The notes beneath the pieces are model-generated. The model had not been told where the DNA came from. It did not search any database and worked only from the letters and a program-made list of their open reading frames with translations. From Chitinophaga pinensis (GTDB lineage Bacteria; Bacteroidota; Bacteroidia; UBA4408), in assembly GCA_945872355.1 (NCBI GenBank), contig CAMBZU010000001.1, positions 16,676 through 80,675 on the forward strand: a stretch of 64,000 nucleotides of DNA, read 5' to 3'. The position numbers and the translations under genes were made by a program. Below are positions 22,744 to 47,858 of the stretch, piece after piece. Position 1 is the first letter of the stretch. Each line of letters opens with the position of its first letter.

Positions 22744-22764
22744 ACACTTGAATTATTTGCGTTA

Positions 22765-27056: not shown

Positions 27057-27160
27057 TAATACCGATGTGAAATAAGTAGTGGCCCAAACTTTTTCCGATC
27101 GGCACTTACCAATGTAAGATTTAAAATTATTGGCATAATTTATAAATTACATTGGTATAA
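27057..27160. repeat. Mosaic intergenic repeat, copy A
   Basis: Shares taataccgatgtgaaataagtaRtggcccaaa and ttttccgatcggca modules with copy B, and the attattggcatRatttataaatYacattggtRtaa module with copy D. Confidence 0.7.
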
Positions 27161-27321
27161 GATACACCCAAAATGAAACTCGATATAAAACCCCTAAGTG
27201 AAAAAATTGATCATTTATTGGTTCATCAAAGTAAAAAATTATTGGAAATTCAAGATGTTTAAATCGATTATTTCAATTTCCTTTGCTTCGTAAACTAAAA
27301 GTTTTTATAAATTGGGTTAAA

Positions 27322-28110
27322 TTATAAACAACTTGTTCTGCCGCCATCTACAGGAACATTGATGCCATTGATGTAGGCAGCAGCAGGGCTTGCTAAAAAT
27401 GCAACTGCAGCAGCAATTTCTTCAGCTTCAGCGAACCTTCCTGCAGGTATCTCATTCATCATTTCCTGCGAAATTTTATCAATAGGTTCATTGTTTTTAA
27501 CAGCTTTATTACTAATAATTCCTTGTAATCGGGCAGTTGAGGTAGCACCTGGCAATACATTGTTTACTGTAACTCCATCAGCTGCAACTTCCATCGAAAG
27601 TGTTTTAGCCCAATTAGCAACAGCTGCTCTAATGGTATTAGAAACTCCTAAGCCTTTTAATGGTTGCTTAACCGAAGTAGAAATGATATTAATAATTCTA
27701 CCAAATTTTTCTTCTTTCATAAAAGGTAAAACAGCTTCAGCTAAAATATGATTACATATTAAATGATTATTGAAAGCGCTTAAAAATTCATGTGTTTTAG
27801 CATCTGAAATTTTGCCTGCTGGCGGACCACCTGTATTGTTTACTAAAATATGCGCCGCCCCATTTTTATCAATATACTTTGCCAATGTTGCTCTTAGTTG
27901 TGCTGGATCGGAAAAATCTACAACGATGTAGTCATTTTCTAAATTATTGATGGCATTTATTTCTGATACCACATTTTTTAACGAAGCCTCATTCCTAGCT
28001 ATTAAAACTATTTTAGCTCCTAATATTGCTAATTCTACTGCACTTGCTTTGCCTATGCCTTGTGTACTGCCACATACAAAGGCTGTTTTGTTTTTTAAGT
28101 TTAAATTCAT
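27322..28110 (-). CDS. SDR-family NAD(P)-dependent oxidoreductase
   Basis: N-terminal AFVCGSTQGIGKASA (TGxxxGIG) motif, 262 aa. Confidence 0.85.
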   Translation of the reverse strand: MNLNLKNKTAFVCGSTQGIGKASAVELAILGAKIVLIARNEASLKNVVSEINAINNLENDYIVVDFSDPAQLRATLAKYIDKNGAAHILVNNTGGPPAGKISDAKTHEFLSAFNNHLICNHILAEAVLPFMKEEKFGRIINIISTSVKQPLKGLGVSNTIRAAVANWAKTLSMEVAADGVTVNNVLPGATSTARLQGIISNKAVKNNEPIDKISQEMMNEIPAGRFAEAEEIAAAVAFLASPAAAYINGINVPVDGGRTSCL

Positions 28111-28335
28111 GTTGCTAAAGTAATGGATTGCTGCGTGCTTATAAAATATTTTTTGCCGAATTGGTCAATACCTCATTCGATAATTTTTATCCCAAATGTA
28201 AAACCAGATTCCCTAGTAGGAATCGTTAATCAACAAAATTTTACAATAATACCAATTGCTCACGGTCCTTAAGATTTCCAAATTGGTGCCTTGATGCTAA
28301 GCCTATCTTTATACTAAATTACATTAGCAGATATG

Positions 28336-29400
28336 CTAGTGTAAAATCTTAAACACCATTTCACGCATGAGCTCGCTTTTTTCCATTTGAATACCGTCAA
28401 TACCCTTGCTGCGCATATCGTATTCGTGCAGATAACCAATTATCCTAACCAATTTATCAAGGGAGTAATTTCTGCCTGCAGTTTCCAAATCTTTAAGTTG
28501 GTTGGAATAAACCCTCATTTGCGACATAACTGCCCCCGAAGATTTATCGGGCAAGGTTTGATAATAAAGTAACTTTGAAAAATAGGTATAAAGCACTGCC
28601 AAATTCATTTCGAAAGGATGCTCCTTGGGGTTTTTGGAAAAATAATCTATAATTTTATTAGCTTTAAATACATCTTTAGAAGCAATGGCATTTTGCAATT
28701 CAAAAATATTAAAATCTTTACTAATGCCAATAAATTGCTGCACATCATCAGGTGTAATTTCATCGTTGTTTTTTTTGTTGATGGCTAACTTGTTCAGCTC
28801 ATTTACAATTCTACTCAAATCATTCCCTAAATGATCGGCCAACATTTGCACGGCCTTGGCATTTATTTTTATTTTGTGGTCAGTGGTGTACTTTGCAATC
28901 CATTCTGCAAGTTTGTAATCTTTTACCTTTTCAGAGGAAAACATTACAGCATTTTTGTCCATCGATTTTGCTAAAGCAGTGCGCTTGTCCAAAGTTTTGT
29001 ATTTGTAACAAATAACCAAAACCGTGGTATTTAAGGGCTTTAATGCATAATCTTCGAGCGGACTTACTTCTGATTCTTTTTTGGCGCTTTTTGATTTTAT
29101 TTTAACGCTCACAGTTTCTGTGAGGTTCTTTATTTCTTGAGCTTCGCGTACAATAATAACTTGTCTCTCCGCCATCATTGGAAAGCGTTTAGCAGCACTA
29201 ATTAAACTAATTAAATCAGTGTCTTTGCCATACATTACTGTTTGATTAAATTCCTTATCAGCTGCATCTAAAATATTGTTTTCAATAAAATCGGCAATTT
29301 GATCAATATAATAGGGCTCTTCTCCTTCTAAAAAATAGACAGGAGCATACTTCTTAGCTTTTAAAGAGGCAATGATATTTTCAAAACTTTCCTTTGGCAA
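28336..29400 (-). CDS. holA: DNA polymerase III delta subunit
   Basis: 354 aa; N-terminal KKYAPVYFLEGEEPYYIDQIADFIE pattern of HolA. Confidence 0.8.
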   Translation of the reverse strand: MPKESFENIIASLKAKKYAPVYFLEGEEPYYIDQIADFIENNILDAADKEFNQTVMYGKDTDLISLISAAKRFPMMAERQVIIVREAQEIKNLTETVSVKIKSKSAKKESEVSPLEDYALKPLNTTVLVICYKYKTLDKRTALAKSMDKNAVMFSSEKVKDYKLAEWIAKYTTDHKIKINAKAVQMLADHLGNDLSRIVNELNKLAINKKNNDEITPDDVQQFIGISKDFNIFELQNAIASKDVFKANKIIDYFSKNPKEHPFEMNLAVLYTYFSKLLYYQTLPDKSSGAVMSQMRVYSNQLKDLETAGRNYSLDKLVRIIGYLHEYDMRSKGIDGIQMEKSELMREMVFKILH

Positions 29401-29444
29401 TGTGGGTATAATTTGTTGTTTAAAACTTGCTCAATGATAAAGAA

Positions 29445-30221
29445 TTATTCTTCAAATCTTAAATGTTTCACTGTGTTTTTGTTATTGATTAACTGATTTA
29501 ATGATTCAATACCAATCTTTAAATGCATATCAACAAAGTTCTCAGTTACTTTTTTGTCGCTTTCGCTTGTTTTAACACCAGTAGAAATCATGGGTTGATC
29601 ACTTACCAAAAGCAATGCGCCAGTGGGGATTTCATTGTAAAAACCAGTGCTAAAAATAGTAGCAGTTTCCATATCTATACCCATTACTCTTAACTTTCGT
29701 AAATATTCTTTAAACTCATTGTCATGTTCCCAAACTCTTCTATTGGTGGTGTATACTGTACCTGTCCAATAATCGCGGTCAAACTCGCGAATTGTTGTAC
29801 TCACTGCTTTCTGTAAACTAAATGCAGGTAGCGCGGGCACTTCTGCTGGGAAATAGTCATTTGATGTTCCTTCTCCTCTTATTGCAGCAATTGGCAAAAT
29901 CAAATCTCCTAGTTCATTTTTTTTCTTTAAACCACCGCATTTTCCTAAAAACAAGCATGCTTTTGGTTTAGATGCAGTTAGTAAATCCATAATGGTGGCG
30001 GCATTTGCACTTCCCATTCCAAAGTTAATGATGGTAATGTCGTTCGCAGTGGCATTGGGCATAATTCTATCTGTACCTTCTACCTCCACATTGTTCCACT
30101 CTGCAAACATTTTTACATAATTGTGAAAGTTGGTCAACAAAATGTAATTTCCAATTTTATCAAGACTTAGACCAGTATAGCGTGGTAACCAATTGGAAAC
30201 AATATCTTCTTTGCTTTTCAT
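29445..30221 (-). CDS. AMP nucleosidase / PNP-UDP-family nucleoside phosphorylase-like protein
   Basis: 258 aa with phosphorylase-family-1 fold motifs (FGMGSANAATIMDLL, FLGKCGGL). Confidence 0.6.
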   Translation of the reverse strand: MKSKEDIVSNWLPRYTGLSLDKIGNYILLTNFHNYVKMFAEWNNVEVEGTDRIMPNATANDITIINFGMGSANAATIMDLLTASKPKACLFLGKCGGLKKKNELGDLILPIAAIRGEGTSNDYFPAEVPALPAFSLQKAVSTTIREFDRDYWTGTVYTTNRRVWEHDNEFKEYLRKLRVMGIDMETATIFSTGFYNEIPTGALLLVSDQPMISTGVKTSESDKKVTENFVDMHLKIGIESLNQLINNKNTVKHLRFEE

Positions 30222-30403
30222 TTGCGTTGTTTTGAAGTAAATTTCTTTTCGTTAATATATATGATATGATATTAATTCGATTCTCAAAAGTAAGTAAATG
30301 TTTCATAATTTAAACTATGCTTTTGTTTAACTGTAAGTTTAGTATTAGTTTTGAATTTTAAAGCATACAAATAACTGTTAATTTCACCTTTACTTAAATC
30401 TCC

Positions 30404-30877
30404 TTGAAAACCTTTGAAAGGCTTAATTTACCTGATGTTGAATTGAAAATTAAAGAGGAAAATCAAAACACATTTGTGTTTGACTTTATTCGAAAAAAAT
30501 GGTTGGTACTCACTCCCGAAGAATGGGTTCGACAGCATTTAGTTAACTATTTAATCATACACAAACATTTTCCAGCATCTTTAATAAGCTTAGAAGCAGG
30601 ATTAAAGTATAATTCTTTGCATAAGAGGACAGACATTTTAATATACAATAAGTTAGGTAAGCCTTTGCTAATTATTGAATGCAAAGCACCTGATGTTCCT
30701 ATCTCTCAAAAAGTACTCACGCAAGTAAGCATTTATAATAAAACCATTAAAGCCCATTTTCTTTGTGTTACAAATGGAATGAAGCATTATTGTTGGACTT
30801 TTGATCCACTAACAAACAAATTTGATTTTCAAAAGCAAATCCCTGATTTTACTGATATTGATGAGTTAAAAGTATAA
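30404..30877 (+). CDS. Type I restriction enzyme HsdR N-terminal domain (PD-(D/E)xK nuclease-like) protein
   Basis: 157 aa; TDILIY...LLIIECKAP resembles a D-x(n)-E-x-K nuclease core. Confidence 0.6.
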   Translation: MKTFERLNLPDVELKIKEENQNTFVFDFIRKKWLVLTPEEWVRQHLVNYLIIHKHFPASLISLEAGLKYNSLHKRTDILIYNKLGKPLLIIECKAPDVPISQKVLTQVSIYNKTIKAHFLCVTNGMKHYCWTFDPLTNKFDFQKQIPDFTDIDELKV

Positions 30878-31058
30878 AAAAGCGCAATATTTTAAACTCA
30901 ACATTTCATCAATTAATTAATACTCATTGCAGTAATTGTCAAAATTGAAAATTAAATGTTGGTCAATTCACAGAAAAAATTTACTTTTGCACTACTTTAT
31001 TATAACAAAATACAAACATTGTTGTTATACAAATAATATTCACATTAAAAACAAATAA

Positions 31059-32378
31059 ATGAGCAACACAAAAACATCTCCAGCTGAAAAGTTTAAGGTA
31101 AAAGATCTTTCTTTATCTGATTGGGGAAGAAAAGAGATTAAATTGGCTGAGGTTGAAATGCCGGGCTTAATGTCAATTCGTGCCGAGTTTGGCGATAGTC
31201 AACCATTAAAAGGTGCACGTATTGCTGGTTGTTTACATATGACCATTCAAACTGCTGTTTTAATTGAAACATTAACGCATTTGGGCGCGCAGGTTTCTTG
31301 GTCTTCTTGTAATATTTTCTCAACGCAAGATCATGCTGCTGCTGCAATAGCTGCTGCTGGTATTCCTGTTTATGCTTGGAAAGGGATGAATGAAGAAGAA
31401 TTTGATTGGTGTATTGAACAAACATTGTTTGCATTTGAAGATGGCCAACCATTAAATATGATTTTAGATGATGGTGGTGATTTAACCAATATGGTTTTTG
31501 ATCGTTATCCAGAGTTAATGAAAGATATTAAAGGTCTTTCTGAAGAAACTACTACTGGTGTTCATCGTTTATATGAGCGTATGAAAAATGGTACTTTGCA
31601 TATGCCAGCTATCAATGTTAACGACTCAGTTACAAAATCTAAGTTCGATAACAAGTATGGTTGCCGCGAATCTTTAGTTGATGCTATACGTAGAGCTACG
31701 GATATTATGCTTGCAGGTAAAGTAGCAGTTGTTGCTGGTTATGGTGATGTAGGAAAAGGTTCAGCACTATCTTTAAGCAGCCAAGGTGTGCGTGTTATTG
31801 TTACTGAAATCGACCCAATTTGTGCATTGCAAGCTGCAATGGATGGGTACCAAGTTATGAAAATGGACAATGCAGTTAAAATTGCTGACATCGTTGTTAC
31901 TGCAACTGGTAATAAAAGCATTATTGTAGATCGTCATTTCAAAAATATGAAACACAATGCTATTGTTTGTAACATTGGTCATTTCGATAATGAAATTGAT
32001 ATGGCTTGGTTAAACCAAAACCATGGTGCTTCTAAAGATATAATCAAACCACAAGTTGATAAATATACTGTTGATGGTAAAGATATTTTAGTTTTAGCCG
32101 AAGGTCGTTTAGTTAACTTAGGTTGTGCAACAGGGCATCCATCATTTGTAATGAGTAATTCATTTACCAATCAAACGCTTGCGCAATTAGAACTATGGGA
32201 AAATTCAGCTAACTACGAAAATAAAGTTTACACTTTGCCAAAGCATTTAGATGAAAAAGTTGCTTTTTTACATTTAGCTAAAATTGGTTGTGAATTAGAA
32301 ACCTTATCAACTGAACAAGCCGATTATATTGGAGTTACAGTTCAAGGTCCATTCAAATCAGAAATGTACAGGTATTAA
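31059..32378 (+). CDS. ahcY: Adenosylhomocysteinase
   Basis: 439 aa, highly conserved SAHH sequence including NAD-binding GYGDVGKG. Confidence 0.95.
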
Positions 32379-32398
32379 TTTTTTGATATTACCTTATA

Positions 32399-32440
32399 CA
32401 ATCCCTGTTTTGTTATGCAAGGCAGGGATTTTTTTTCATA
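32399..32440 (+). terminator. Rho-independent terminator after ahcY
   Basis: atccctg-ttttgttatgcaagg-cagggat hairpin followed by tttttttt. Confidence 0.65.
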
Positions 32441-32461
32441 TTAACATTAAGTAATACTATT

Positions 32462-33499
32462 TTGCAAAATACAATTCCATTAAAAAATGATTTAATTGTT
32501 CGCGCTGCGAAAGGCGAAAAAACAGAAAGAACACCCGTATGGTTAATGCGCCAAGCGGGTAGAATTTTACCCGAATATAGGGCTGTTCGTGAAAAAATGG
32601 GTGGCTTTAAAGAATTAGTTAAAAATCCTGAATTTGCTTGCGAAGTTACCATACAGCCTGTAGACATTTTAGGTGTAGATGCAGCCATTATTTTCTCCGA
32701 TATTTTAGTGATTCCTGAAGCCATGGGTCTAAATTACCAAATGATAGAAGCTAAAGGTCCTTGGTTTGAAAAAACAATTCAAAGCAAAGCAGATATTGAT
32801 GCTTTAACGATTGCCCAAGCTGATGATTTAAGCTATGTTACCGAAGCCATTAAGCTTACTAAAAAGGAATTGAATGGAAGAGTTCCTCTGATTGGTTTTG
32901 CTGGTGCACCTTGGACTATTTTTGCATACATGATAGAAGGGAAAGGGTCTAAAACCTTTTCTTTAGCGAAAAAGTTTTTGTACACCAATCCTGTAGATTC
33001 TCATTTGCTATTAGAAAAGATTACACAAAGCACCATTAATTACTTGAAAGCACAAGTGGCTGCAGGCGCTGATATCATTCAAATATTTGACAGTTGGGCA
33101 GGCATACTTTCTCCTGAACAATACGCAACATTTTCATTAAAATACATTGATGCTATTTGTAATGCTATAACAGAAGTTCCAGTGACCGTATTTGCTAAAG
33201 GTGCTTTTTTTGCAAGAAAAGAAATGGGTGCATTAAATTGTGCCACCATTGGCTTAGATTGGAACATGGAAATTGCTGAAAGCAGAGCTTTGATAGGCCC
33301 AAATAAAACCTTGCAAGGCAATTTGGATCCTTGTTTGCTGTATGCTGATTTTAAAACCATTAAAAAGGAAACTGAAAAAATGTTGAGGCTTTTTGGAAGT
33401 CACAGACATATTGCGAACCTTGGACATGGCGTGTATCCCGATATTGATAAAGATAAGGTAAAATGTTTTGTTGATACAGTAAAGGAATTTCGCTTTTAA
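32462..33499 (+). CDS. hemE: Uroporphyrinogen decarboxylase
   Basis: [15 protein letters not shown] signature; 345 aa. Confidence 0.9.
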
Positions 33500-33512
33500 T
33501 AAATATATAAGT

Positions 33513-34526
33513 TTGAAGGCCAAAACAGATTTTGAGGAATTAATTAGTTTCGTGCAATACAGCAAGGGCCAGTGCTACGTGCTTTGCGATGAAAACACTT
33601 TTAAGCATTGCTACGAGGTTTTTTGTCAGCTGATTGCCCTTAAAGTTCAACCTATTGTAATAAAAGCAGGAGAGGCGCAAAAAAACATTGCTACTTGTGA
33701 ATTTATTTGGCAAAAGTTAATAGATAACAAAGCTGATAAAAATGCTTGTATTATTAATTTGGGTGGTGGTGTTGTGAGCGATATTGGAGGTTTTGTTGCT
33801 GCTACTTATAAAAGAGGTATAAAATATATAAATGTACCAACTTCGTTATTGGCGATGGTAGATGCAGCCACAGGTGGAAAAACGGGAATTAATTTAGGTC
33901 ATTTTAAAAATATGATTGGCTTAATACAACAACCAGAAATGGTTGTATTGCATGCTCCTTTTTTAAACACATTGCCAAAAAAACACCTTAAAAATGGCTT
34001 TGCAGAAATGTTGAAGCACGCCATTTTAAATGGGAAAGATGCCCTCAACGAACTAACATTGAATAAAGATATTACTCCTCAATTGAACGAAAAAGTAATA
34101 TTAAAAAGTTTAGCTATTAAAGAGGACATAGTAGCGCAAGACCCACAAGAAAAAGGACATCGTAAAATATTGAATTTTGGACATACTATTGGACATGCTA
34201 TTGAATATGCTGCCCAAGAAAATGGCTGTGAAATTTTGCATGGAGAAGCAGTTGCCATTGGAATGATTGCCGCTTTGAAATTATCAGTTTTAAAGTTGGA
34301 ATTTGATTGTAATGAAGCAGATTTAGTGATCAACTTTATACGTTCTCATTTTTCAAAGCCAGCTTGGATAAGTGCCAATCATAATAAAATAATAAACGCG
34401 ATTTTACAAGATAAAAAAAATAGTAATCAAGAAATTAATATGGTTTTGCTTGCCGATTATGGCAAGCCTGTTTTTGATGTTGTTTGTACATTGGATGAAA
34501 TAGCAAAAATCTTGTTGGAGCTTTGA
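33513..34526 (+). CDS. aroB: 3-dehydroquinate synthase
   Basis: GGGVVSDIGGFVAATYKRGIKYINVPTSLLAMVDAATGGKTGIN Gly-rich NAD-binding motif of DHQ synthases. Confidence 0.8.
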   Translation: MKAKTDFEELISFVQYSKGQCYVLCDENTFKHCYEVFCQLIALKVQPIVIKAGEAQKNIATCEFIWQKLIDNKADKNACIINLGGGVVSDIGGFVAATYKRGIKYINVPTSLLAMVDAATGGKTGINLGHFKNMIGLIQQPEMVVLHAPFLNTLPKKHLKNGFAEMLKHAILNGKDALNELTLNKDITPQLNEKVILKSLAIKEDIVAQDPQEKGHRKILNFGHTIGHAIEYAAQENGCEILHGEAVAIGMIAALKLSVLKLEFDCNEADLVINFIRSHFSKPAWISANHNKIINAILQDKKNSNQEINMVLLADYGKPVFDVVCTLDEIAKILLEL

Positions 34527-34600
34527 AAATAAGATAGAATTTTTAACTTTTAATATACTCCAGACCTCCCTGCGGGCATGATCCGCAATTATACAACTTG

Positions 34601-35527
34601 CTAATAAAAAGTAAAATTGAAGTTGAAAATTTCAATAAGACTGTCGTTGTTTGATTTACTTAAGATACTCTCTAAAATCATGTTTTCTTTGTTGTAAAAA
34701 TAAAAACGGTGGTTTTTTAATGATGTATTTCTAAAATATTTTTCTTCAGTTAAATTGTCAGCCTCATAGCTAAATTTTGTATTTTCTTTTAAATCACCTG
34801 CCGCATTGCTTGAATAAAAAGATTCTAGCGTACGGCCCTTATCATCAAAATTAGTATTGTAATTTACGCGCACACCCGTGGTTGTAAACGTGTAATCTTG
34901 TGCTTTCAATAATTTATTTTTTCCTTCAAAGTATAAGATGCCTTCTTTGTAAATCAAGTTATTATCGTTGAGGAACTTCTTACGTGTTTGATTTTCATTG
35001 ATAATTTCATAACTATAACTTTCACTTTGCATTAATGTTTGTTGACCTAATTTAAAAAACCTAAAGTCGTCGCTCAAATTGGTTTCGTTACAAACAATAT
35101 GCTTGGTTACTTGATTGTACTCATTTGATGTTTCATAAATAGCAGTATAACGTCCTTTATTGAAAGTTCTGGCAATGTGTGTTCTTGTTTCTTTGTTATA
35201 GTAATGAAATGTAAAAATACTATCATAGTTATATTCTTGCCTTGTTACTTCAACAAATGATGCTAAATCACCTTGCAGATTGTAGGTAAAAATATATTTT
35301 TTACCTGTTTTTTCAATCCGCGCATTTTCACGTTTAATACCAACTTCAACTTCTATGGTTTGTATTTTTTTATCGACATGTATTTTGCTTGGATAAAGGC
35401 GCTCGATGGAGTTGTTTATCCATTCTTGCTGTTGGTTAATTTGTGCGTTTGTATTTAATGCTATAAAGCACATCAATATCACCAATCTAAGCATAATATA
35501 ATGGATGGATCTAATTTTAAGAATCAC
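34601..35527 (-). CDS. Hypothetical secreted protein (308 aa)
   Basis: Signal peptide (MLRLVILMCFIALNTNAQ); Tyr/Asn-rich; no known motifs. Confidence 0.4.
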   Translation of the reverse strand: MILKIRSIHYIMLRLVILMCFIALNTNAQINQQQEWINNSIERLYPSKIHVDKKIQTIEVEVGIKRENARIEKTGKKYIFTYNLQGDLASFVEVTRQEYNYDSIFTFHYYNKETRTHIARTFNKGRYTAIYETSNEYNQVTKHIVCNETNLSDDFRFFKLGQQTLMQSESYSYEIINENQTRKKFLNDNNLIYKEGILYFEGKNKLLKAQDYTFTTTGVRVNYNTNFDDKGRTLESFYSSNAAGDLKENTKFSYEADNLTEEKYFRNTSLKNHRFYFYNKENMILESILSKSNNDSLIEIFNFNFTFY

Positions 35528-35575
35528 TCAGAAAAAGGTTTAAAAATTCAAATATCTAACAAAATAATTTATGGA

Positions 35576-37582: not shown

Positions 37583-37647
37583 AGTGTATAGGAATTAATT
37601 CACTAAAAGATACAACATTGGTTTCTGCCAACGCTTTAAAAAAGAAA

Positions 37648-38736: not shown

Positions 38737-38970
38737 CTTTTTTTTAACAAGTCGCAAAGATAAATTTTAAACGATAACTTTAATAGAACTAATTTTATTT
38801 TAGCATAAACCTTATTGCAAATGTACTAATGTGAAATCAACATAACAAGCTGTAATTTAATTCATCAGATGAAGCCGGTAGGGGAAGTTGAGTAGATTTC
38901 TAATACGAAATTTGGGTTTATACTGATTGCACTTTCAATTTAGTCCAATTGCGGCATTCCCTTATTGTAC

Positions 38971-39113
38971 TAATACCGATGTGAAATAAGTAATGGCCCA
39001 AATTTGTTTCACGGCATTTGTCCCAAACTTTTTTCCGATCGGCATTAATCGTTGCATATTTATTTTTTAGTTGTACTAAAAAATAAATGCAATTGGCATA
39101 AGAAATCTATAAC
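38971..39113. repeat. Mosaic intergenic repeat, copy B (longest copy)
   Basis: Contains all modules: ataccgatgtgaaataagtaatggcccaaa; internally duplicated tttgtttcacggcatttgtcccaaa; ttttccgatcggcattaatcgttgcatatttatttttt..gtactaaaaaataaatgca; attggcataa. Confidence 0.7.
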
Positions 39114-39170
39114 CTGAGAACTGTTATTAATTTAAAATGCAATATTTATGATGGGAGTTAAAATAAAAAA

Positions 39171-39200
39171 AGGCTGTTTCCTTTGGAAACAGCCTTTTTT
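39171..39200 (-). terminator. Rho-independent (bidirectional) terminator downstream of the Omp28-like gene
   Basis: aggctgtttcc-tttg-gaaacagcct perfect hairpin flanked by A-run and T-run. Confidence 0.75.
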
Positions 39201-39219
39201 ATAAAGGTAAAAACCTTAA

Positions 39220-41100
39220 TTATTTGATTACATTAATTTTCTTAGTGATTGAACCACCTTCAGAAGAATTGATATTGATAAAATAGATACCAGCATTCCA
39301 AGAAGAAGCATCAATTGATTGACGATATAAACCATTTACAACTCCTAAATTTTGAGTCATCACTTTATTACCTAACATATCAACAACATCAAAAGAAATT
39401 CTTTCAGATTTAGTAGTATTGATATTTAAAGTAGTTTGATTTTGGAAAGGGTTAGGGTAAACTTCAAAACTGCTGATAGAATTAATTTCTTTAATGCTTG
39501 CAGGATTAGATGCGCCAGCGTGAAGGTTAACTTCATCAATGTAGAGGTTGTTACCATAAGCACTAGTAGCAACAAACTTAACTAAAACATTAGTTTGATT
39601 AATGTAAGGCGTCATGTTTACACTTTCAGCTCTCCATTGTGTTGCACTCGGCGTAAAAGCAGCAGTTGAATTTGCGGCTGTTGCAAGTGTAGTGCCTGCT
39701 TCGTTGTAAGGGGTTGCCCAAGTAGCGCCACAGTCAGTAGAAACTTTCACTTCTAACTTATCTGCTTCTCCTGCATAAGATGCATAAGCAACGTAGAAAT
39801 CTAAAGTAGCTTGCGTAGCAGTCATTGTCATGTTAGCATTTGGCATAAAAAACTCATCTACTTGCCCAGCCGAACTATTGTAAAAATCCATTTTAGCAGA
39901 AGTAGTTGTAGTGCTAGCACCAGCAGTAGTTATACGCGTCCAAGTTGGACCTAAATCTGGGTTATCTATAACCCAACCTGTTGGAGGGAAAGAAGTAGCA
40001 CTGTAATTTTGAACAATTGGAGAAACAGAACCAACATTTGTAAAAATGCTGAAATTAATATTTGTTGACTCAAACAAGGTATTAAAATTCGCATTCCCAT
40101 TAGGGTTTGTTATATACGATTTGAAATTATGACTACCTACAGTAGTAGTAAGACTTGGTAAAACTTGCGTTGCAGTTGCACCAGCAGCGATAGATCCAGT
40201 CCAAGGTAAAGTTGAAACTGTTCCGCCATCAACTTGGTAGTTAATTGTACCAGAAGTTAAAGTAGCAGTACCAGTATTTTTAATAGTGATTGTAGGTGTA
40301 AAAGTTGTAGCGCATTGCACCACAGGAACACCAGAAATAGCCGTAACAGCTACATTTTCATTAATTGTTTGAGGATAGCTATAAGCCGCCTGTGGAACAC
40401 TTTTGTTTCCATTGTCCTGCATCCAACCAACAAAAGCTATTTGGCTTTCATCATAAATATAAGTTGGTGTATTTACATTTAATGTAATTGTTTGTGTTTG
40501 ACCTACAGTCCAAGTACCCGCTAATGCAGTTCCATTTTGGTTAGGCAACATTTTTCTCATTACACTATAAAAATCTTTTTCACCATTACTACCTGGAGCA
40601 TTTGCAAAATTAATTTCCTGTTCAACTAAACCAACTTGCAATACCATTGCACCACTAGCGGTAAAAGCTTGTGTAGCAGTAATTACAGCTGTTACAGTAG
40701 CTGCTGAATGGTCAGCGTTAAAAACATGACTTAAATCAATAGTAAATGGTGATGAAATTGGATATCTACCTCTTATAGTAGTAGCATCAACTGTTGTGTT
40801 GGTACCATCTAAAATTCTATCAGGAACACCAGTGATACCGTAATAAGAAACACGAGCAGCAACTTCAGCAGCATTTTGTGCATTCATAGGGTCGATACCT
40901 GGCCAGCTGGTTTGGTATTTAATTGATACAACTGTATCATGCGTTGCAGCAGTTAGAGCAGCATTTAAAGCTGGATTTTGAGCTGCACAAGGCCCGCATG
41001 ATGCTTGAGAGAAACCCTCAACTAATACCAATCTTTGAGATTGTGCAAAAGCTAAACTTCCTGCTAACATCATACTTAAAATCGTAAATGTTTTTTTCAT
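39220..41100 (-). CDS. Omp28-related thioredoxin-like outer membrane protein with T9SS C-terminal sorting domain
   Basis: Signal peptide; LVLVEGFSQASCGPCAAQNP resembles the Omp28-family thioredoxin-like N-terminus; Thr/Ala-rich middle; C-terminal about 80 aa (VYPNPFQN...GIYFININ..KINVIK) typical of a Por secretion CTD. Confidence 0.6.
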   Translation of the reverse strand: MKKTFTILSMMLAGSLAFAQSQRLVLVEGFSQASCGPCAAQNPALNAALTAATHDTVVSIKYQTSWPGIDPMNAQNAAEVAARVSYYGITGVPDRILDGTNTTVDATTIRGRYPISSPFTIDLSHVFNADHSAATVTAVITATQAFTASGAMVLQVGLVEQEINFANAPGSNGEKDFYSVMRKMLPNQNGTALAGTWTVGQTQTITLNVNTPTYIYDESQIAFVGWMQDNGNKSVPQAAYSYPQTINENVAVTAISGVPVVQCATTFTPTITIKNTGTATLTSGTINYQVDGGTVSTLPWTGSIAAGATATQVLPSLTTTVGSHNFKSYITNPNGNANFNTLFESTNINFSIFTNVGSVSPIVQNYSATSFPPTGWVIDNPDLGPTWTRITTAGASTTTTSAKMDFYNSSAGQVDEFFMPNANMTMTATQATLDFYVAYASYAGEADKLEVKVSTDCGATWATPYNEAGTTLATAANSTAAFTPSATQWRAESVNMTPYINQTNVLVKFVATSAYGNNLYIDEVNLHAGASNPASIKEINSISSFEVYPNPFQNQTTLNINTTKSERISFDVVDMLGNKVMTQNLGVVNGLYRQSIDASSWNAGIYFININSSEGGSITKKINVIK

Positions 41101-41169
41101 TTTTGTAAATTTATTATGTTTAGAATTAATGAACGAAAATAGTTTTATTTTAATCTACCCCCAAAAAAA

Positions 41170-41580
41170 TTAACTTTTATTTTTTAAGTCTTTGTAAATC
41201 AATTTTTTAGTTATTAGTTTATTTTTACCCGATAGATATGCCCAAGCCAAGCAACAGCCTAAGGTATTTGCCAAAAAGTCGAATATGTCGGCAGTTCTTT
41301 CTGTAAAAAATTCTTGTTGCATGATCTCAAGCATTGCACCATAAGGGATGCTAAAACACAAGGCATAAAGAATAGCGTTTTTTTTATTTGGTGTTTTTTT
41401 TACGGCAAGTTGAATAAGTAAAACTAAAACAAAAAAGATAAATGCATGAACTAATTTATCAAAACTGAGGAGCTCTAAAAAAGAAATATGCGGAATATCC
41501 CTTCCAGGTAAACCGCATAAAATTGCAATTAACAGCGCCCAAAGGATGGGCGGAGCAAATATCTTAAGTTTGTTATTCAA
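41170..41580 (-). CDS. VanZ-family membrane protein
   Basis: 136 aa, 4 TM, LSFDKLVHAFIFFVL motif. Confidence 0.6.
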   Translation of the reverse strand: MNNKLKIFAPPILWALLIAILCGLPGRDIPHISFLELLSFDKLVHAFIFFVLVLLIQLAVKKTPNKKNAILYALCFSIPYGAMLEIMQQEFFTERTADIFDFLANTLGCCLAWAYLSGKNKLITKKLIYKDLKNKS

Positions 41581-41604
41581 ACCAAGGTCTGAATTTTTAA
41601 ATAA

Positions 41605-41985
41605 TTAATAACCAATAAGTGCTTTGTACTGGGTTGCAGTTAACAATTCATCAAGCTCGGCTGTATTGCCAATACTCATTTTTATCATCCACCCATTTCC
41701 GTAAGGATCAGTATTAACACTTTCAGGGTTGCCATCTAAACCCTTGTTAACCTCTAAAATTTGGCCGCTTATTGGTAAAAATAAATCTGAAACTGTTTTC
41801 ACAGCTTCTACAGTGCCAAAAACAACCTCTTTTTCTAATGTTAATCCTTCTGTGCTGATATCTACATATACTATATCACCCAACTCTCCTTGAGCAAATT
41901 CGGTAATGCCAACAAAGGCCTCATTGCCTTCTATTCTGATCCATTCGTGATCTTTTGTGTACTTTAAATTTTCAGGGAAATTCAT
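41605..41985 (-). CDS. gcvH: Glycine cleavage system H protein
   Basis: [35 protein letters not shown] with lipoyl-Lys context ([10 protein letters not shown]); start at the internal Met (MNFPENL). Confidence 0.9.
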
Positions 41986-42199
41986 AATTATAGGTTTTAA
42001 AGTTACAAACGTAAAAAAAAAATCAATAAAAATGAATCTTGCCAAATTTTATTCATTGCATTCAAGCCTCATGCATTTTTTAATTTATGCTTAGCGAGCA
42101 CCTTAAGTGCTTAATTTAGCTTATTGTGTACTTATTGTATTAACTGAAGTAAAATTCTTTTTTAAATTTATTTAGCTTTGTGGGCCTTAAAAAACAAAT

Positions 42200-43165
42200 A
42201 TGATAGTAATTACTGGTGCCGCTGGATTTATTGCGAGTTGTTTAGTTTCTAAGTTAAACGAACAAGGGTTTACCGATTTAGTGTTGGTTGACGATTTTGC
42301 AATGGCATCAAAACATGGCAACTGGGCATTAAAAAAATATAGAACATTAGTTCAAAGAAATGTTTTTTTTGATTGGCTTAAAGATAATCAGCAACAAGTA
42401 CAATTTATTTTTCATTTAGGTGCTAGAACTGATACTACCGAATTTAATCAGCATATTTTTGATGAATTGAATTTAAATTACAGTAAAAATATTTGGCATG
42501 CCTGTGTAAATTATAATATTCCGCTTGTATATGCATCTTCAGCTGCTACTTATGGAGCGGGTGAAATTGGCTATGATGATAATGAAACAAAAATTCAACT
42601 TTTGAAACCTTTAAATCCCTATGGAAATTCGAAAAATGATTTCGACAATTGGGCATTGATGCAAGAAAAAAAGCCATTGTTTTGGGCTGGTTTAAAGTTT
42701 TTCAATGTGTATGGTCCGAATGAATATCATAAAGGCAGAATGGCCTCGGTTATTTTTCATGCCTATCATCAAATTGCAGCTACAAGCGCTATGAAGCTTT
42801 TTAAAAGTCATAAAAGCGAGTGTGAGAATGGTGAACAATTACGAGATTTTATTTATGTGAAAGATGTTATAGAAGTTTGTTATTTTTTAATGCATTTGCG
42901 CAGGCACAGTGGTATATATAATTTAGGAACCGGAGTTGCCAGAACTTTTAAAGCTTTGGCACAGCAAACTTTTAAATCGATGGGCAAGGTTGAGCAAATT
43001 GAATACATTGATATCCCAAGCGACATAAGAGCTACTTATCAATATTTTACCGAGGCCAACATGCACAAATTGCAAAATATAGGATACAATAAAAATTTTT
43101 ATAACCTGGAAGATGGGATAGATGATTACGTGCAAAATTATCTTCATCAAAAACAGTATTTTTAA
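42200..43165 (+). CDS. hldD: ADP-L-glycero-D-manno-heptose 6-epimerase
   Basis: MIVITGAAGFIASCLVSKL Rossmann motif, YASSAATYG and YGNSK catalytic motifs. Confidence 0.8.
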   Translation: MIVITGAAGFIASCLVSKLNEQGFTDLVLVDDFAMASKHGNWALKKYRTLVQRNVFFDWLKDNQQQVQFIFHLGARTDTTEFNQHIFDELNLNYSKNIWHACVNYNIPLVYASSAATYGAGEIGYDDNETKIQLLKPLNPYGNSKNDFDNWALMQEKKPLFWAGLKFFNVYGPNEYHKGRMASVIFHAYHQIAATSAMKLFKSHKSECENGEQLRDFIYVKDVIEVCYFLMHLRRHSGIYNLGTGVARTFKALAQQTFKSMGKVEQIEYIDIPSDIRATYQYFTEANMHKLQNIGYNKNFYNLEDGIDDYVQNYLHQKQYF

Positions 43166-43173
43166 TTTTTGAG

Positions 43174-43704
43174 ATGAAAAGATTCACTGCCTATAAAACA
43201 GACAAACTAAACCCAAAGCAAACCATAGCTTTGATTGCTCAATTTAAACTTTTTAATTTGAATTGGTGGTTGCAAGTGATTGATAGTTTATGGCAACAGC
43301 GTGTAGTAAGATATTTTTTTGCAGCCGCTACGGCCACGGTTGTGGATGTTTTGGTATTTTGGTTTGTATTCAATAAAATACTTCACCAGCATAATCATAA
43401 TTTGTTGGGGATGATAGTTTTAAAAGCGCCAACTTTATCATTGATTTGTGGCTTTGGTTGTGGGCTAGTTACTAACTTTTTAATTACCAAATTTTTTGTT
43501 TTTAATCAATCAGATGCAAAAACAAGGTGGCAATTGATTAGGTTTATTTTAGTAGCTATTGTAGTGCTTATTTGTAATTATTATTTTATGTGGTTTTTAA
43601 CAGCTCAATTAAATTGGTATGCAACTGTTTCAAGAGCTGTTTCTGCTGTTACAATTGGGGTATTTAGTTTTACGGCACATAAGTTTTTTTCATTCAAATT
43701 ATAA
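43174..43704 (+). CDS. GtrA-family membrane protein
   Basis: 176 aa, 4 TM helices, RYFFAAATATVVDVLVFW N-terminal pattern. Confidence 0.55.
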   Translation: MKRFTAYKTDKLNPKQTIALIAQFKLFNLNWWLQVIDSLWQQRVVRYFFAAATATVVDVLVFWFVFNKILHQHNHNLLGMIVLKAPTLSLICGFGCGLVTNFLITKFFVFNQSDAKTRWQLIRFILVAIVVLICNYYFMWFLTAQLNWYATVSRAVSAVTIGVFSFTAHKFFSFKL

Positions 43705-43712
43705 AGTTGTAA

Positions 43713-45083
43713 ATGCTAGCTACTTCCGAAATAAAAGCCTTATTGGATTTGAAGAATAAAAGAGGATTGAAAGATTTTCTTTCTGATTATGGTGCTGAAG
43801 AAGTAGCTGATTTATTAAATCATCTTGAAGAAGAAGATTTGGTCTTAGTATTTAAAGCGATTGATCGCGATACAGCTTTTGCAGCCTATGAACTTTTAGA
43901 CATTAACTTTCAAATTGCCTTGCTCGATTTGTTGCCAAATAAGTTGGTAACACTCATCATTAATGATATGAGTCCTGATAAAAGAACTGCTTTATTTCAG
44001 GAGTTAGACAATGAAATGTTGAACAAGCATTTGAAATTACTAACATTGAGTGAAAGAACAGTGGCGCTTAATTTATTAGGCTATCCAGAAAATTCTATAG
44101 GACGATTGATGACGCCAGATTATATTGCCGTGAATGCAAGCTGGACAATTGATGATGTGCTGAGTTACATTAGAAAATACGGTGAAAATTCTGAATCTTT
44201 AAACGTAATTTATATCATTGACGAAAAGGGCATTTTAATAGATGATATAAAAGTAAGAGAAATATTAATTGCCAAACCTGAAACAAAGCTGCAAGAAATT
44301 ATTGATGGCAGATTCACCGCATTGTCAGTGCTAGATGATGAAGAGGTGGCGATTAATGTATTTAGTAAAACTAACAGAATGGCTTTGCCTGTAATTGACA
44401 AAAATGGATTATTACTGGGTATTGTTACAATGGATGATGTGTTGAGGTTATCAAAACAAGAAGATACAGAAGACATTCAAAAACTGGGTGGTGTTGAGGC
44501 CTTGCAAGAGCCCTACATGGATGTGCCTATTCCATTAATGATAAGAAAAAGGGCAGTATGGTTAATTGTGTTGTTTTTTGGAGAATTATTGACTGCTTCT
44601 GCAATGGCCTATTTTGAAGATGAAATTTCTAAAGCGGTTGTATTGGCTCTTTTTGTGCCGTTGATTGTAAGCAGTGGAGGGAATTCTGGCTCGCAGGCAG
44701 CAACACTTATTATCAGGGCAATGGCCTTAGGTGAAATAACAATTAATGACTGGTGGCGTGTATTAAAGAGAGAAATAGTTTCTGGTTTTGCACTTGGGCT
44801 AATACTAGCTGTGATAGGATTTATTAGAATTGGTATGTGGAATTATTTTACCCATGTTTATGGCATACATTGGATGGGAATTGCCGCCACTGTTAGTTTC
44901 TCTTTATTGGGTATTGTAATGTGGGGTACATTAATGGGAAGTATGTTGCCTATTGCACTTAAAAGATTAGGAGCTGATCCTGCTACTTCTTCAGCTCCAT
45001 TTGTGGCAACTTTGGTTGATGTAACGGGGCTAATCATTTATTTTACTTTTGCTTTGTTATTTCTTAAAGGAACTTTATTATAA
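43713..45083 (+). CDS. mgtE: Magnesium transporter MgtE
   Basis: N-terminal MgtE_N, two CBS domains, C-terminal TM domain with GGNSGSQAATLIIRAMALG. Confidence 0.9.
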   Translation: MLATSEIKALLDLKNKRGLKDFLSDYGAEEVADLLNHLEEEDLVLVFKAIDRDTAFAAYELLDINFQIALLDLLPNKLVTLIINDMSPDKRTALFQELDNEMLNKHLKLLTLSERTVALNLLGYPENSIGRLMTPDYIAVNASWTIDDVLSYIRKYGENSESLNVIYIIDEKGILIDDIKVREILIAKPETKLQEIIDGRFTALSVLDDEEVAINVFSKTNRMALPVIDKNGLLLGIVTMDDVLRLSKQEDTEDIQKLGGVEALQEPYMDVPIPLMIRKRAVWLIVLFFGELLTASAMAYFEDEISKAVVLALFVPLIVSSGGNSGSQAATLIIRAMALGEITINDWWRVLKREIVSGFALGLILAVIGFIRIGMWNYFTHVYGIHWMGIAATVSFSLLGIVMWGTLMGSMLPIALKRLGADPATSSAPFVATLVDVTGLIIYFTFALLFLKGTLL

Positions 45084-45152
45084 AAAAAATGTTTGTTTAT
45101 TTTACAATAATTAAAATCAAATTCACTTTTAATCAAATTAATATTTAAGCAC

Positions 45153-45689
45153 ATGTTATCTAAAAAAATTGAATCAGCAATAAATAAACAAATAGAATTA
45201 GAAGCAGCGTCTTCTCAATTGTATTTATCAATGGCCTCCTGGGCCGAAACAAAAAGTTTTAATGGAGTAGCGGCTTTTTTATTTAAGCATGCTGATGAAG
45301 AACGTTTTCATATGATTAAATTATTGAAGTTTGTTAACGAAAGAGGCGGTCATGCTTTGGTTCCAGCACTGAAACAACCTGATAAAGAATTTAAAACCTT
45401 AAGTGTAGTTTTTGAACAAATATTGAAACATGAAATTTATGTATCAAATGAAATAAACAAGTTAGTTGATATTTGTTTACAAGAAAAGGATTATACAACA
45501 CACAACTTTATACAATGGTATGTTTCTGAGCAAATAGAAGAGGAGTCGTTAGCGCGTAATGTGCTTGATAAGTTGAAACTCATTGGAGGTGATAAAGGCG
45601 GCATTTATTTCTTTGATCGTGATCTTGGTGCAATGGCTGCTATGAGTGCCCAAAACGAACAAGGTGGAGGGAAAGAAGGCAAAGCCTAA
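45153..45689 (+). CDS. ftnA: Non-heme ferritin
   Basis: INKQIELEAASSQLYLSMASWAE..ADEERFHMIKLLKF ferroxidase-centre residues. Confidence 0.9.
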   Translation: MLSKKIESAINKQIELEAASSQLYLSMASWAETKSFNGVAAFLFKHADEERFHMIKLLKFVNERGGHALVPALKQPDKEFKTLSVVFEQILKHEIYVSNEINKLVDICLQEKDYTTHNFIQWYVSEQIEEESLARNVLDKLKLIGGDKGGIYFFDRDLGAMAAMSAQNEQGGGKEGKA

Positions 45690-45709
45690 ATTTTATTTAA
45701 ATTCTTTGA

Positions 45710-45746
45710 AGGTCTTGGTTGTATTATGATCAAGACCTTTTTTATG
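45710..45746 (+). terminator. Rho-independent terminator after ferritin
   Basis: ggtcttg-gttgtattatgat-caagacc hairpin plus tttttt. Confidence 0.65.
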
Positions 45747-45803
45747 CATTTACCAATATAATATTTTGAATTATTGGCATGATTTATAAATCACATTGGT
45801 GTA
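45746..45803. repeat. Mosaic intergenic repeat, copy D (partial)
   Basis: About 80% identical over about 60 nt to the right module of copy A (gcaYttaccaat..attattggcatRatttataaatYacattggtRtaa). Confidence 0.65.
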
Positions 45804-45885
45804 ACTTGTGATGTTTCTAAAAAATAATTTGCAAATAATAAAAGGTTTAATTATTTTGACCAAAAATTAAACAAAATAACAATCT

Positions 45886-46809
45886 TTGCGTTATAGTTTA
45901 GCAACAATAATCAAAAACCAAAACTCAATTAAAGTGTCTTCATATTCAATTAAAGATTTAGAACGTATTTCTGGGATTAAAGCGCATACTTTAAGAATTT
46001 GGGAACAACGATATAATATAATAAGTCCAAAAAGATCTGAAACAAACATTAGGAACTACAATGACGAAGATCTAAAAACGATACTTAACATTGGTATTTT
46101 AAATAACTCAGGATATAAAATTTCTAAAATTGCTGAAATGCCGAAAGCAGCAATAACGGCTTCGGTGCTCGAAATTACATGTAGTAATTTTGATGCAAAT
46201 GTTCAAGTTGATAATTTAATTATTTCAATGACTGAAATGGATGAAGAACGCTTTGAAAAGTTTTTGTCAGCCAATATTATTCGTTTAGGTTTTGAAAAAA
46301 CATTTTTAGAGATTTTACATCCATTTATGGTGAAGGTTTCAATTTTATGGATTACAAATTCTATTAATCCTGCACAAGAGCATTTTATCTCTAATTTGGT
46401 GCGTCAAAAATTGATAGCTGCAATTGATGGTGTTTCAATAGACATAAAATCTAATGCAAGCAAGTGTTTGTTATACTTGCCCGAAAACGAGCTACATGAA
46501 ATTAATTTATTGTTTGCCAATTTAGTATTGAAAAGGCAAGGGTATAAAACTATTTATTTAGGGCAATCAGTTCCATATAGTGATATTAAAATGGTTTGTG
46601 AATTACATAAGCCCAAGTACATCATTTCAGTTATTACGTGTACTATGGCCGATATTAGTGTTGAGCAATATACAGAGCAGCTTTGTAATGATTTCCCAAA
46701 ACAAAAAATATTGCTTTCTGGTTACCAGTTTTTAAATAACTTCGCTAAAGTACCTGCCACGGCAAAGGTATTTAAAACGCCAACAGAATTGTTGGCTTTG
46801 GTAGCTTAA
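45886..46809 (+). CDS. MerR-family transcriptional regulator with C-terminal B12-binding-like domain (CarH/LitR-like)
   Basis: N-terminal MerR HTH (YSIKDLERISGIKAHTLRIWEQRYNII). C-terminal Rossmann-like region with degenerate E-x-H-x-x motif (ENELHEINL) instead of DxHxxG. Sits directly upstream of an ECF sigma and crtI-crtB. Confidence 0.55.
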   Translation: MRYSLATIIKNQNSIKVSSYSIKDLERISGIKAHTLRIWEQRYNIISPKRSETNIRNYNDEDLKTILNIGILNNSGYKISKIAEMPKAAITASVLEITCSNFDANVQVDNLIISMTEMDEERFEKFLSANIIRLGFEKTFLEILHPFMVKVSILWITNSINPAQEHFISNLVRQKLIAAIDGVSIDIKSNASKCLLYLPENELHEINLLFANLVLKRQGYKTIYLGQSVPYSDIKMVCELHKPKYIISVITCTMADISVEQYTEQLCNDFPKQKILLSGYQFLNNFAKVPATAKVFKTPTELLALVA

Positions 46810-46820
46810 TTTCAAGAAGT

Positions 46821-46880
46821 ATCGGCATTAACCATTGCATATTTATTTTTTTTGGACTAAAAAATAAAAGCATTTGTTAT
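46821..46880. repeat. Mosaic intergenic repeat, copy C (partial)
   Basis: atcggcattaaccattgcatatttattttttttggactaaaaaataaaagca matches the central/right module of copy B. Confidence 0.65.
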
Positions 46881-47317
46881 TACTTATTGTAAAATCAACT
46901 GGGATGTAATTTTTTTAGACCCATTGATTGGGACGCATTGCTTCATTGTAAAAAAATATTTGCTCTATCGAGTTTTATACTATTGTTCTCAAACAACATA
47001 AAAAGTATCCGCTTGGGTAATAAAAATGCCTCCTAAATCATCATATGCATTTTTGAATCCTATTTCTTATTGTGTTAATTTTGTTTTAAACACGCAGCAG
47101 AAGCCTATGCTTATTGATATTCTGTTATTAATTGATGTCTACAATCAATACAGTTAGTATCCGATAAATATATAAACAACAGCAATCGCTTAATTATAAA
47201 AAGTTTGATAGTGTTTAAAAAAAGAAGCAAAAAGATAAACAAAAATACAATTAATGTTAAACAAATTTGATTATTGTTTAATAAAAGAGTACATTTGTTC
47301 AACAAAAAATAAAGGTC

Positions 47318-47821: not shown

Positions 47822-47858
47822 TTATTTGCTTAATTTTACAAGCATTTAATTTTTATTT

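Follow-up and report, generated by a model that had tools for sequence, protein, structure and literature searches.

Mosaic intergenic repeats in a genome of uncultured freshwater Bacteroidota are probably whole, truncated and fused copies of two miniature inverted-repeat transposable elements

Introduction

[quoted passage not shown] Both duplicate TA (2 bp) and sometimes affect the expression of their neighbors, and Correia elements carry promoter and IHF sites. In Bacteroidota, 81,380 distinct MITEs have been counted in 46,051 genomes (PMC11602168), and MITECca01 of Cardinium is derived from ISCca4, an insertion sequence (IS) of the IS982 family (PMC9769881). Here, we analyze four intergenic sites, A to D, in a 64,000-nt stretch of DNA assigned to Chitinophaga pinensis (assembly GCA_945872355.1, contig CAMBZU010000001.1, positions 16,676–80,675; hereafter, the window), which a preliminary description, made from the sequence alone, had taken for a family of mosaic repeats with a palindromic core. 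It is highly probable that the four sites represent two related non-coding MITEs of ~125–130 bases, in copies that are whole, truncated, or fused.

Like bacterial MITEs in general, these elements are ~125 nt long and non-coding, have inverted repeats and a short duplication, occur in many copies that are mostly intergenic, presumably depend on a transposase acting in trans, and break short-read assemblies. With the Correia and RUP elements they share size, abundance between genes, and internal-deletion subfamilies, but they duplicate TWA (3 bp) and have no sequence similarity to them. The inverted repeats of MITECca01 match ISCca4, whereas no parent IS of the families described here was found in 0.8 Mb of related DNA.

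Two other groups invite comparison. PIF/Harbinger elements are typified by a 3-bp TWA duplication (PMC4482050, PMC2213677) and are related by their DDE domain to the bacterial IS5 family, whose target is ANT (PMC4482050). Tourist-like MITEs and PHIS elements resemble the present ones in the 3-bp TWA (TAA/TTA) duplication and in their AT-rich targets; they are, however, eukaryotic families, whereas the elements here have TACC termini and no IS5-like transposase was found in the same 0.8 Mb. The likeness would therefore lie in how the element works, and membership is not implied. The repetitive extragenic palindromic (REP) sequences, in turn, are 20–40-nt palindromes with a GTAG or CGTC tag and are linked to HUH enzymes (PMC3733652; PMC6006769). 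REPs, bacterial interspersed mosaic elements (BIMEs), and REPINs are also hairpin-rich and intergenic and form mosaic clusters of recurring modules, but the units here measure 124–130 nt and have inverted termini and a 3-bp duplication, neither of which is found in REPs. The terminal sequences gave only unrelated matches in the searchable literature, where no named description was found (the sequences of the census in PMC11602168 were not compared). The kind of element is thus entirely familiar, and this particular family does not seem to have been described.

Results

The repeats and their distribution

The whole window was screened by an unbiased repeat search, and sites A–D were also read directly. 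The search recovered similarities between A and C (59 nt at 86%), A and B (38 nt at 92%), and B and D (31 nt at 94% and 38 nt at 79%). The long modules occur twice each in the 64 kb, against 0.00 expected from 100 dinucleotide-preserving shuffles, and the module CCGATCGG has two exact matches and four at ≤3 mismatches, against 0.82 expected. The four intergenic sites with shared modules named in the preliminary description are therefore present, far above chance. Their number and extents needed correction: a fifth site, a relic at 4151–4171(−), had been overlooked, B reaches ~50 nt further left (from 38921), and D begins at 46807, overlapping the stop codon of the MerR-like gene.

Nor are the copies confined to these four. 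One genome per GTDB species was scanned with a pattern spanning two of the originally listed modules (i and ii), which yielded 22 real stretches. The metagenome-assembled genome (MAG) Loclat_bin-03925 holds at least 16 exact-pattern copies on 14 contigs, a Lake Mendota MAG five, and three other MAG contigs one each. A match in Paraburkholderia (L022), in G+C-rich coding DNA, was rejected as chance. Scanning Joint Genome Institute (JGI) metagenomes for the full-length element added 82 loci, which brought the distinct insertion sites of what we call family I to 84 in all. The known copies come from MAGs of uncultured freshwater Bacteroidota in two lakes and from contigs of ~20 JGI metagenome datasets.

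Sequence families and termini

Family I is ~124 nt long (TACCGATGTGA...TCACATTGGTA), with the layout 5'-TACCGATGTGAAAT...(CC[G/A]ATCGGCAT)...TACCAATGTAAG-long hairpin-AAATCACATTGGTA-3' and the canonical form T-ACCGATGTGAAATAAGTAATGGCCCAAATTTGTTTCACGGCATTTGTCCCAAACTTTTTTCCGATCGGCATTTACCAATGTAAGATTTTAAATTATTGGCATAATTTATAAATCACATTGGT-A. Family II, of ~130 nt (TACCGATTACAC...GTATCGGCATTAACCATTG-hairpin-CAATTGGTA), has the sequence TACCGATTACACTTTCAATTTAGTCCAATTGCGGCCAAGCCTTATTGTACTAGTTTCAAGTTGTATCGGCATTAACCATTGTAAATTTATTAAACAGCTTTGGGCTATTTAATAAATACAATTGGTA; its right hairpin is module iii of the preliminary description, and its left arm is found just left of what had been delimited as copy B. The metagenome scan for full-length family I also revealed a third family with identical termini (family III). 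It too contains the ATCGGCAT box, was seen only in JGI metagenome loci, and serves as host for nested insertions of the family I variant Ib.

This variant emerged from the alignment of 81 distinct family I copies, which separates subfamily Ia, the window type, from subfamily Ib, where CCAATCGG replaces the palindrome and a 1-nt indel is present. The palindromic CCGATCGG core emphasized earlier is consequently a trait of subfamily Ia only. The distance from TACC to GGTA is 122–125 nt in 72 of the 81 copies, and the other nine are internal-deletion variants of 98–104 nt. Copies are 94.7–100% identical to the consensus. No reading frame is conserved in families I–III; a small protein was considered and rejected, as the lone 31-codon open reading frame (ORF) across Ia is frame-shifted in Ib by the 1-nt indel.

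Every family ends in inverted repeats of 11 nt, which in family I read TACCRATGTGA. In family I, TACCGATGTGA pairs with TACCAATGTGA, the reverse complement of the right end, over 11 nt with one G/A difference, and positions 1–11 pair with 115–125 in 81/81 sequences, with the reservation that the search pattern itself dictated part of positions 2–11. It left the terminal T and A free, and T precedes ACC at 84/84 distinct sites and A follows GGT at 83/84. The inverted repeats of family II are TACCGATT and TACCAATT.

Family I folds into two hairpin domains. Its right 49 nt form a 21-bp stem (DNA fold −24.2 kcal/mol, z=−5.6), and the terminal motif recurs four times, at 1–11(+), ~60–70(−) in degenerate form, 74–84(+), and 114–124(−). 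One may speculate that this fourfold motif reflects a dimeric origin or several transposase-binding sites. At two loci (L016:3630–3684 and L081:2937–3061), the top of the right hairpin differs and a G-C pair replaces a bulged T; in L016 the loop is also inverted (ACCA vs TGGT/TGGC), as template switching at a palindrome would give.

Evidence for transposition

The boundaries of family I are sharp: the flanks of 23 MAG copies diverge right outside TWA-T ACCGATG...CATTGGT A-TWA. At 65 of the 84 distinct sites, the two flanks carry the same 3-bp TWA, with a TAA/TTA contingency table of 31/3/5/33 (Fisher p=1.4e-11) and one TGA/TGA site. When sites that might be orthologous were stringently pruned, the flanks still agreed at 34 of 46 (p=1e-5). 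In family II, the flanks match in all six copies with both flanks readable.

Paralogous empty sites give the same picture. At L079, GGCAT-TTA-[TACC...GGTA]-TTA-CATTAC corresponds to GGCATTTACATTAC in five uninterrupted family III copies. At L009, family I is placed inside family II as TACTAA-[TACC...GGTG]-TAATTTCAG, and eleven intact family II copies read TACTAGTTTCA or TGCTAATTTCA at this point. These sites fit only a 3-bp duplication with element ends T...A; duplications of 2, 4, or 5 bp, or ends ACC...GGT, fit neither the flanks nor the empty sites.

Defined boundaries, inverted termini, TWA duplication, multi-copy dispersal, nesting, strain polymorphism, and lack of coding capacity are all observed, and together they make the repeats MITEs, most likely selfish DNA without a dedicated host function. 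Of the two options offered earlier, REP/BIME-like or MITE-like, the inverted termini and the 3-bp duplication thus favor the second. An origin of the first kind would have REP/BIME-like units, or hairpins derived from IS200/IS605 (REPINs, PATEs), moved as single strands by a HUH tyrosine transposase (RAYT/TnpA), with clusters forming as new copies insert at the hairpin foot of old ones. The long hairpins and a mosaic organization reminiscent of BIMEs agree with it, as do copies that abut head to tail at L016, L021, and L025 (...TTGGTATTA, then directly TACCGATG). However, HUH transposition proceeds without target duplication, contrary to the duplicated flanks and empty sites, and a right end encoded by the element would not make the left and right flank variants co-vary as they do. 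Terminal inverted repeats are also contrary to that mechanism, and the 20–40-nt palindrome with a GTAG/CGTC tag by which REPs are defined (PMC3733652) is absent from these longer units with TACC termini. A tblastn search with IS200 TnpA (approximate query) found nothing in the 0.8 Mb, and the abutting copies are explained by a single TWA shared as common target. We therefore hold single-stranded mobility by a HUH enzyme to be most unlikely.

Copies A–D as products of nesting and deletion

The pieces in the window were placed by nhmmer family profiles and by blastn to the modules (Table 1). Among them, A is the sole complete element, with both ends and an identical duplication. Its termini are intact (TACCGATGTGA...TTACATTGGTA), and 26 nt are deleted internally between GGCCCAAA and GTCCCAAA. 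The duplication GGCCCAAA / GTCCCAAA had been presented as a peculiarity of B. It is indeed present there, but it is the normal state of the element, found in 17 of 21 aligned family I copies, window A included; since it is the usual state, the direction is reversed, with B normal and A deleted. A similar, independent deletion occurs at L028.

Table 1. Repeat pieces, adjoining signals, and other features, in window coordinates except for the last row
Feature	Position	Strand	Basis and remarks
Left TAA target-site duplication of A	27057–27059	.	read directly; recurs at 27158–27160
Copy A, family Ia, 98 nt	27060–27157	+	nhmmer family I positions 1–123, E=9e-24
Right TAA target-site duplication of A	27158–27160	.	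identical to left copy
Copy B part 1, family II left arm (TACTGATTGCACTTTCAATTTAGTCCAATTGCGG...)	38921–38970	+	nhmmer positions 2–63, E=8.9e-12; blastn to module T3 87% over 55 nt; TTA precedes at 38918–38920
TAA target inside family II, family I entry point	38971–38973	.	intact nested form at L009
Copy B part 2, left 73 nt of family Ia, to ...TTCCGATCGGCATT	38974–39046	+	nhmmer E=1.3e-21; 100% identity to consensus 1–76 (3-nt duplication counted)
Copy B part 3, family II right hairpin arm	39038–39098	+	nhmmer family II positions 68–132; blastn to T2 92% over 64 nt; TAA follows at 39099–39101
Copy C, 3' remnant of family I (consensus ~68–124, long right hairpin)	45746–45801	+	nhmmer 68–122, E=1.5e-10; TAA follows at 45802–45804
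Copy D, 3' remnant of family II (right 75 nt)	46807–46879	+	nhmmer positions 55–132, E=4.6e-07; blastn to T2 90% over 60 nt; starts at MerR/B12 gene stop codon; TTA follows at 46880–46882
Solo family I left terminus (TACCGATGTGAAATAAGTAG)	4151–4171	−	blastn 100% over 20 nt; TTA precedes; intergenic, between ORFs 1487–4045(−) and 4521–6029(−)
Intrinsic terminator of T9SS-tail gene 39220–41100(−), context	39166–39200	−	16-bp stem and T-run
Hairpin and T-run after ferritin gene (AAGGTCTTG...CAAGACCTTTTTT), just 5' of C	45709–45743	+	read directly
Flavo-1 RNA (RF01705)	22754–22831	+	53.3 bits vs gathering 42
DUF805 RNA motif (RF03081)	61508–61576	+	65.3 bits vs gathering 51.1
tRNA-Val(TAC)	56536–56613		
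Family III (TACCGATACGGTATCTGTATTAGTCC...ATATCGGCATTTACATTAC...AGTAATGGTA)	L064:3794–3926, L062:2855–2981, L120:2772–2901, L077:1–119, others		

Copy B consists of family I and family II pieces. The 9 nt at 39038–39046 (ATCGGCATT) are common to both families and form its crossover point. Locus L009, where an entire family I element stands inside family II, is the intact precursor form; compared with it, B is missing the right hairpin of family I, the second TAA, and ~14 nt of family II. For C, the counterpart is a strain contig (L008) in which modules i and ii stand directly ahead of C and the element at this site is full and 125 nt longer; C is thus the 3' part of a longer unit, and GC is found at each end of the deletion that sets it apart from L008. 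Copy A is identical in five independent metagenome assemblies, and the identity of A, C, and D in independent assemblies shows that their forms are not assembly artefacts.

The mosaic appearance is accounted for by elements that inserted into TWA sites of other, AT-rich elements and then lost DNA or recombined at short stretches common to the families, so that the earlier wording, recombined modules, was apt. In the proposed course of events, elements would land in TAA or TTA of AT-rich intergenic DNA, also inside one another, and slippage or recombination between short shared stretches (ATCGGCATT, GGCCCAAA/GTCCCAAA, ATTGGTATAA) would remove the intervening DNA. Copy A would then be an internal deletion between direct repeats, and B a family I element nested in family II that collapsed with the loss of everything between two ATCGGCATT boxes; C and D would be the 3' halves left after deletion.

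Terminus-like 11-nt matches at 3185, 13477, and 41023 (coding) and at 7526, 28247, and 60077 (intergenic) gave no nhmmer detection at E<0.05. The intergenic stretches 7500–7540(−), 28247–28300(+), and 60077–60160(+) begin with the terminus-like TTATACCGATGTAAAATA, TAATACCAATTGC, or TTATACCAATTACAAC, and may be very degraded relatives.

Genomic setting and the question of RNA function

The context could be resolved for 53 family I sites, 50 of which are intergenic: 19 between convergent, eight between divergent, and 23 between tandem gene pairs. Orientation at the tandem sites is unbiased: 11 elements share the strand of the genes and 12 lie opposite. In the window, the statement that copies lie just 3' of stop codons or terminators was roughly right. 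Copy A starts 9 nt after a stop codon, D adjoins one, C comes after the ferritin hairpin and T-run, and B is ~65 nt from the terminator of the gene for a protein with a type IX secretion system (T9SS) tail. The ferritin hairpin was left uncalled by the terminator scan because its loop exceeds 8 nt. Many contigs end within a copy (e.g., L001, L012, L021, L023, L025, L026, L032, L036). The same family I insertion was seen at L015:6809–6900 and L024:1243–1330, beside what by eye resembles the 3' end of a tRNA gene; the two contigs belong to MAGs of different species, one from Mendota and one from Loclat, and have nearly identical flanks, which makes some of the insertions, at the least, old or shared.

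A role as small RNAs, terminators, or attenuators had been suggested for the repeats, and they could more generally form a structured non-coding RNA or cis-regulatory family, mRNA stabilizers included, with the fold under selection. Its stability is predicted, and in single copies paired changes in the right hairpin preserve its stem: GATTTGTAAATTAT...ATAATTTACAAATC in L016 and L081, and an extra A facing the bulged T in L011 and L056. Repair of DNA palindromes or template switching would, however, give such changes just as readily. Copies are also more often downstream than upstream of genes, as the convergent and divergent counts show, but this excess is what purifying selection against promoter disruption gives any transposon. 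Covariation offers little: RNAalifold found pairing of the terminal repeats only, which the search pattern fixes, with a covariation term of −0.59 kcal/mol, and the outer stem of subfamily Ib contains an uncompensated mismatch (ACCACTGT vs ACATTGGT). The hairpin proposed earlier for the left end, CCGATGTGAAA with TTTCACGG, fails likewise, since the variants TTTTACTG, TTTCACTT, and ATTACATGG alter one arm and the other is invariant.

In Rfam, no repeat was matched at the gathering threshold in the window or in an E-value scan of 26800–47200; the only gathering matches in the window were tRNA-Val, Flavo-1, and DUF805 RNA, all away from the repeats (Table 1). These RNAs, Flavo-1 above all, indicate that the window derives from a Flavobacteriia-like organism. 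No T-run follows the hairpins, which are themselves A+T-rich and lead into ATAA, and the terminator scan calls none of A–D. The unbiased orientation relative to neighboring genes and the presence or absence of the element among near-identical strains also speak against the RNA hypothesis, which we judge very unlikely.

Strain variation around the MerR-like regulator

The genes next to the window copies are unrelated to each other: a Kdo transferase, a 144-aa protein, an SDR, a GDP-mannose pyrophosphorylase, the T9SS-tail protein, ferritin, a MerR/B12-binding regulator, an extracytoplasmic function (ECF) sigma factor, and a CrtI-like enzyme. The last three are located at 45934–49340(+), with the LitR/CarH-like MerR and B12-binding regulator followed by the ECF sigma factor (47318–47821) and the CrtI-like desaturase (47859–49340); related contigs continue with phytoene synthase and LytB. 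The segment looks like a light-regulated carotenoid cluster.

Strain variants were collected as metagenome contigs encoding the identical ferritin. Between flanks that are 96–99% identical, the ferritin-MerR spacer has three lengths: 245–246 nt (window type), 323 nt (L008), and 418 nt (L003 and L005). The longest form holds a chimera made of the left part of family I, the hairpin of family II, and the hairpin of family I. The conserved part of this spacer is the ~130 nt downstream of C, not C itself. At the other side of the regulator, an unrelated segment of ~160 nt replaces D (L003:2269–2440 and L040:991–1160, compared with window 46810–46880), and similarity resumes at ATTACTTATTG. Both spacers around the regulator thus vary between strains because of the MITE fragments. 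Exact-protein look-ups gave no match for the GDP-mannose pyrophosphorylase gene or, with either of two start codons, for the MerR-like gene, so that strain variants of site B were not obtained.

Because C and D bracket the gene for the regulator (45934–46809; MerR, B12-binding_2), which is followed by genes of the ECF-type sigma-70 family and of CrtI-like type, and because both contain palindromes, the modules could be imagined as operators or promoters of a light-responsive regulon, with LitR/CarH-like sites of the form TACCAATGT...ACATTGGTA. Yet both in the window and at the 84 other sites, the same elements have unrelated neighbors, such as the genes for a Kdo transferase, an SDR, a GDP-mannose pyrophosphorylase, a T9SS protein, and a tRNA. 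Strains with the nearly identical flanks given above have different modules or none at the positions of C and D, and it is the sequence downstream of C that is conserved. Given the unrelated neighbors and this strain variability, the LitR operator idea was rejected, and we give it virtually no credence.

Two further features were seen in the window. Directly after A, a 29-codon ORF (MKLDIKPLSEKIDHLLVHQSKKLLEIQDV) at 27174–27263(+) was called as a gene in one metagenome assembly (L033 3236–3325); its conservation is uninformative, as it is identical in all strain contigs. A 52-nt direct repeat with 85% identity (9232–9283 and 11658–11709, both +), the final 33 nt of which are the same in both copies (TAGACCAGTAGCACGTTTACGACTTAATTTTGCAA), covers the 3' ends of ORFs 8959–9288 and 11223–11672 and is unrelated to the MITEs.

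Discussion

If the repeats are MITEs, a DDE transposase encoded at another place would move them in trans by cut and paste. Judged from the TWA duplication alone, a hallmark of PIF/Harbinger, an IS5/PIF-Harbinger-like enzyme is the favored partner, for which we see about an even chance; IS30-like or IS3-like enzymes are the alternatives.

Several points weigh against the interpretation of the repeats as MITEs mobilized in this way. Enzymes of the IS30 and IS3 families also give 3-bp duplications, and IS5-family ends are typically GG/GA, whereas the elements here start with TACC. In 0.8 Mb of related DNA, the search for an autonomous partner, with matching termini 0.5–4 kb apart and equal flanks, returned only chance pairs, and tblastn with IS5, IS30, IS3, IS200, and IS1 proteins (approximate queries) returned nothing below E=0.2. 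All-against-all clustering of 587 ORFs of ≥150 aa, judged by cluster size and identity range with no Pfam or family scan, gave no transposase-like cluster. Every empty site found is paralogous, a repeat within a repeat, with no clean orthologous filled/empty pair among them; we infer recent mobility in the lineage. Among the four window copies, only A is a complete element, and some copies may be exapted as RNA or regulatory elements.

The best hit of E. coli IS5 InsH (approximate query) was at E=0.83, in L051 5000–9500, where the ORF translations, read without a family scan, showed no sign of a transposase. The consensus had no blastn match in PLSDB plasmids or INPHARED phages, and the 23-mer of the left end had none in IMG/VR.

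A wider reading places the repeats in an unnamed MITE superfamily of at least three sister families, with TACCGAT...ATYGGTA termini and the ATCGGCAT box, whose transposase may be non-resident and some copies of which may have been co-opted. That enzyme could be a bacterial Harbinger-like one with true TWA specificity, or be borne by a phage or plasmid, and the strain-variable copies bracketing the LitR/CarH-like regulator of the carotenoid cluster may be an example of co-option. Taken as a whole, this proposal appears unlikely to us.

As MITEs, the repeats belong to a well-known type of element and are otherwise ordinary selfish DNA, with no effect on neighboring genes shown. Their value is in what they explain. 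With many contigs ending inside a copy, they account for assembly breaks in an abundant uncultured group of freshwater Bacteroidota, and they mark recent rearrangement between near-identical strains. They also offer a clean bacterial case in which a MITE that duplicates TWA enters copies of its relatives, and in which nested insertion and deletion between short repeats give BIME-like mosaics without the REP/RAYT machinery. Discovery of the partner transposase could connect the IS5-type enzymes of bacteria with the TWA specificity known from eukaryotic PIF/Harbinger elements.

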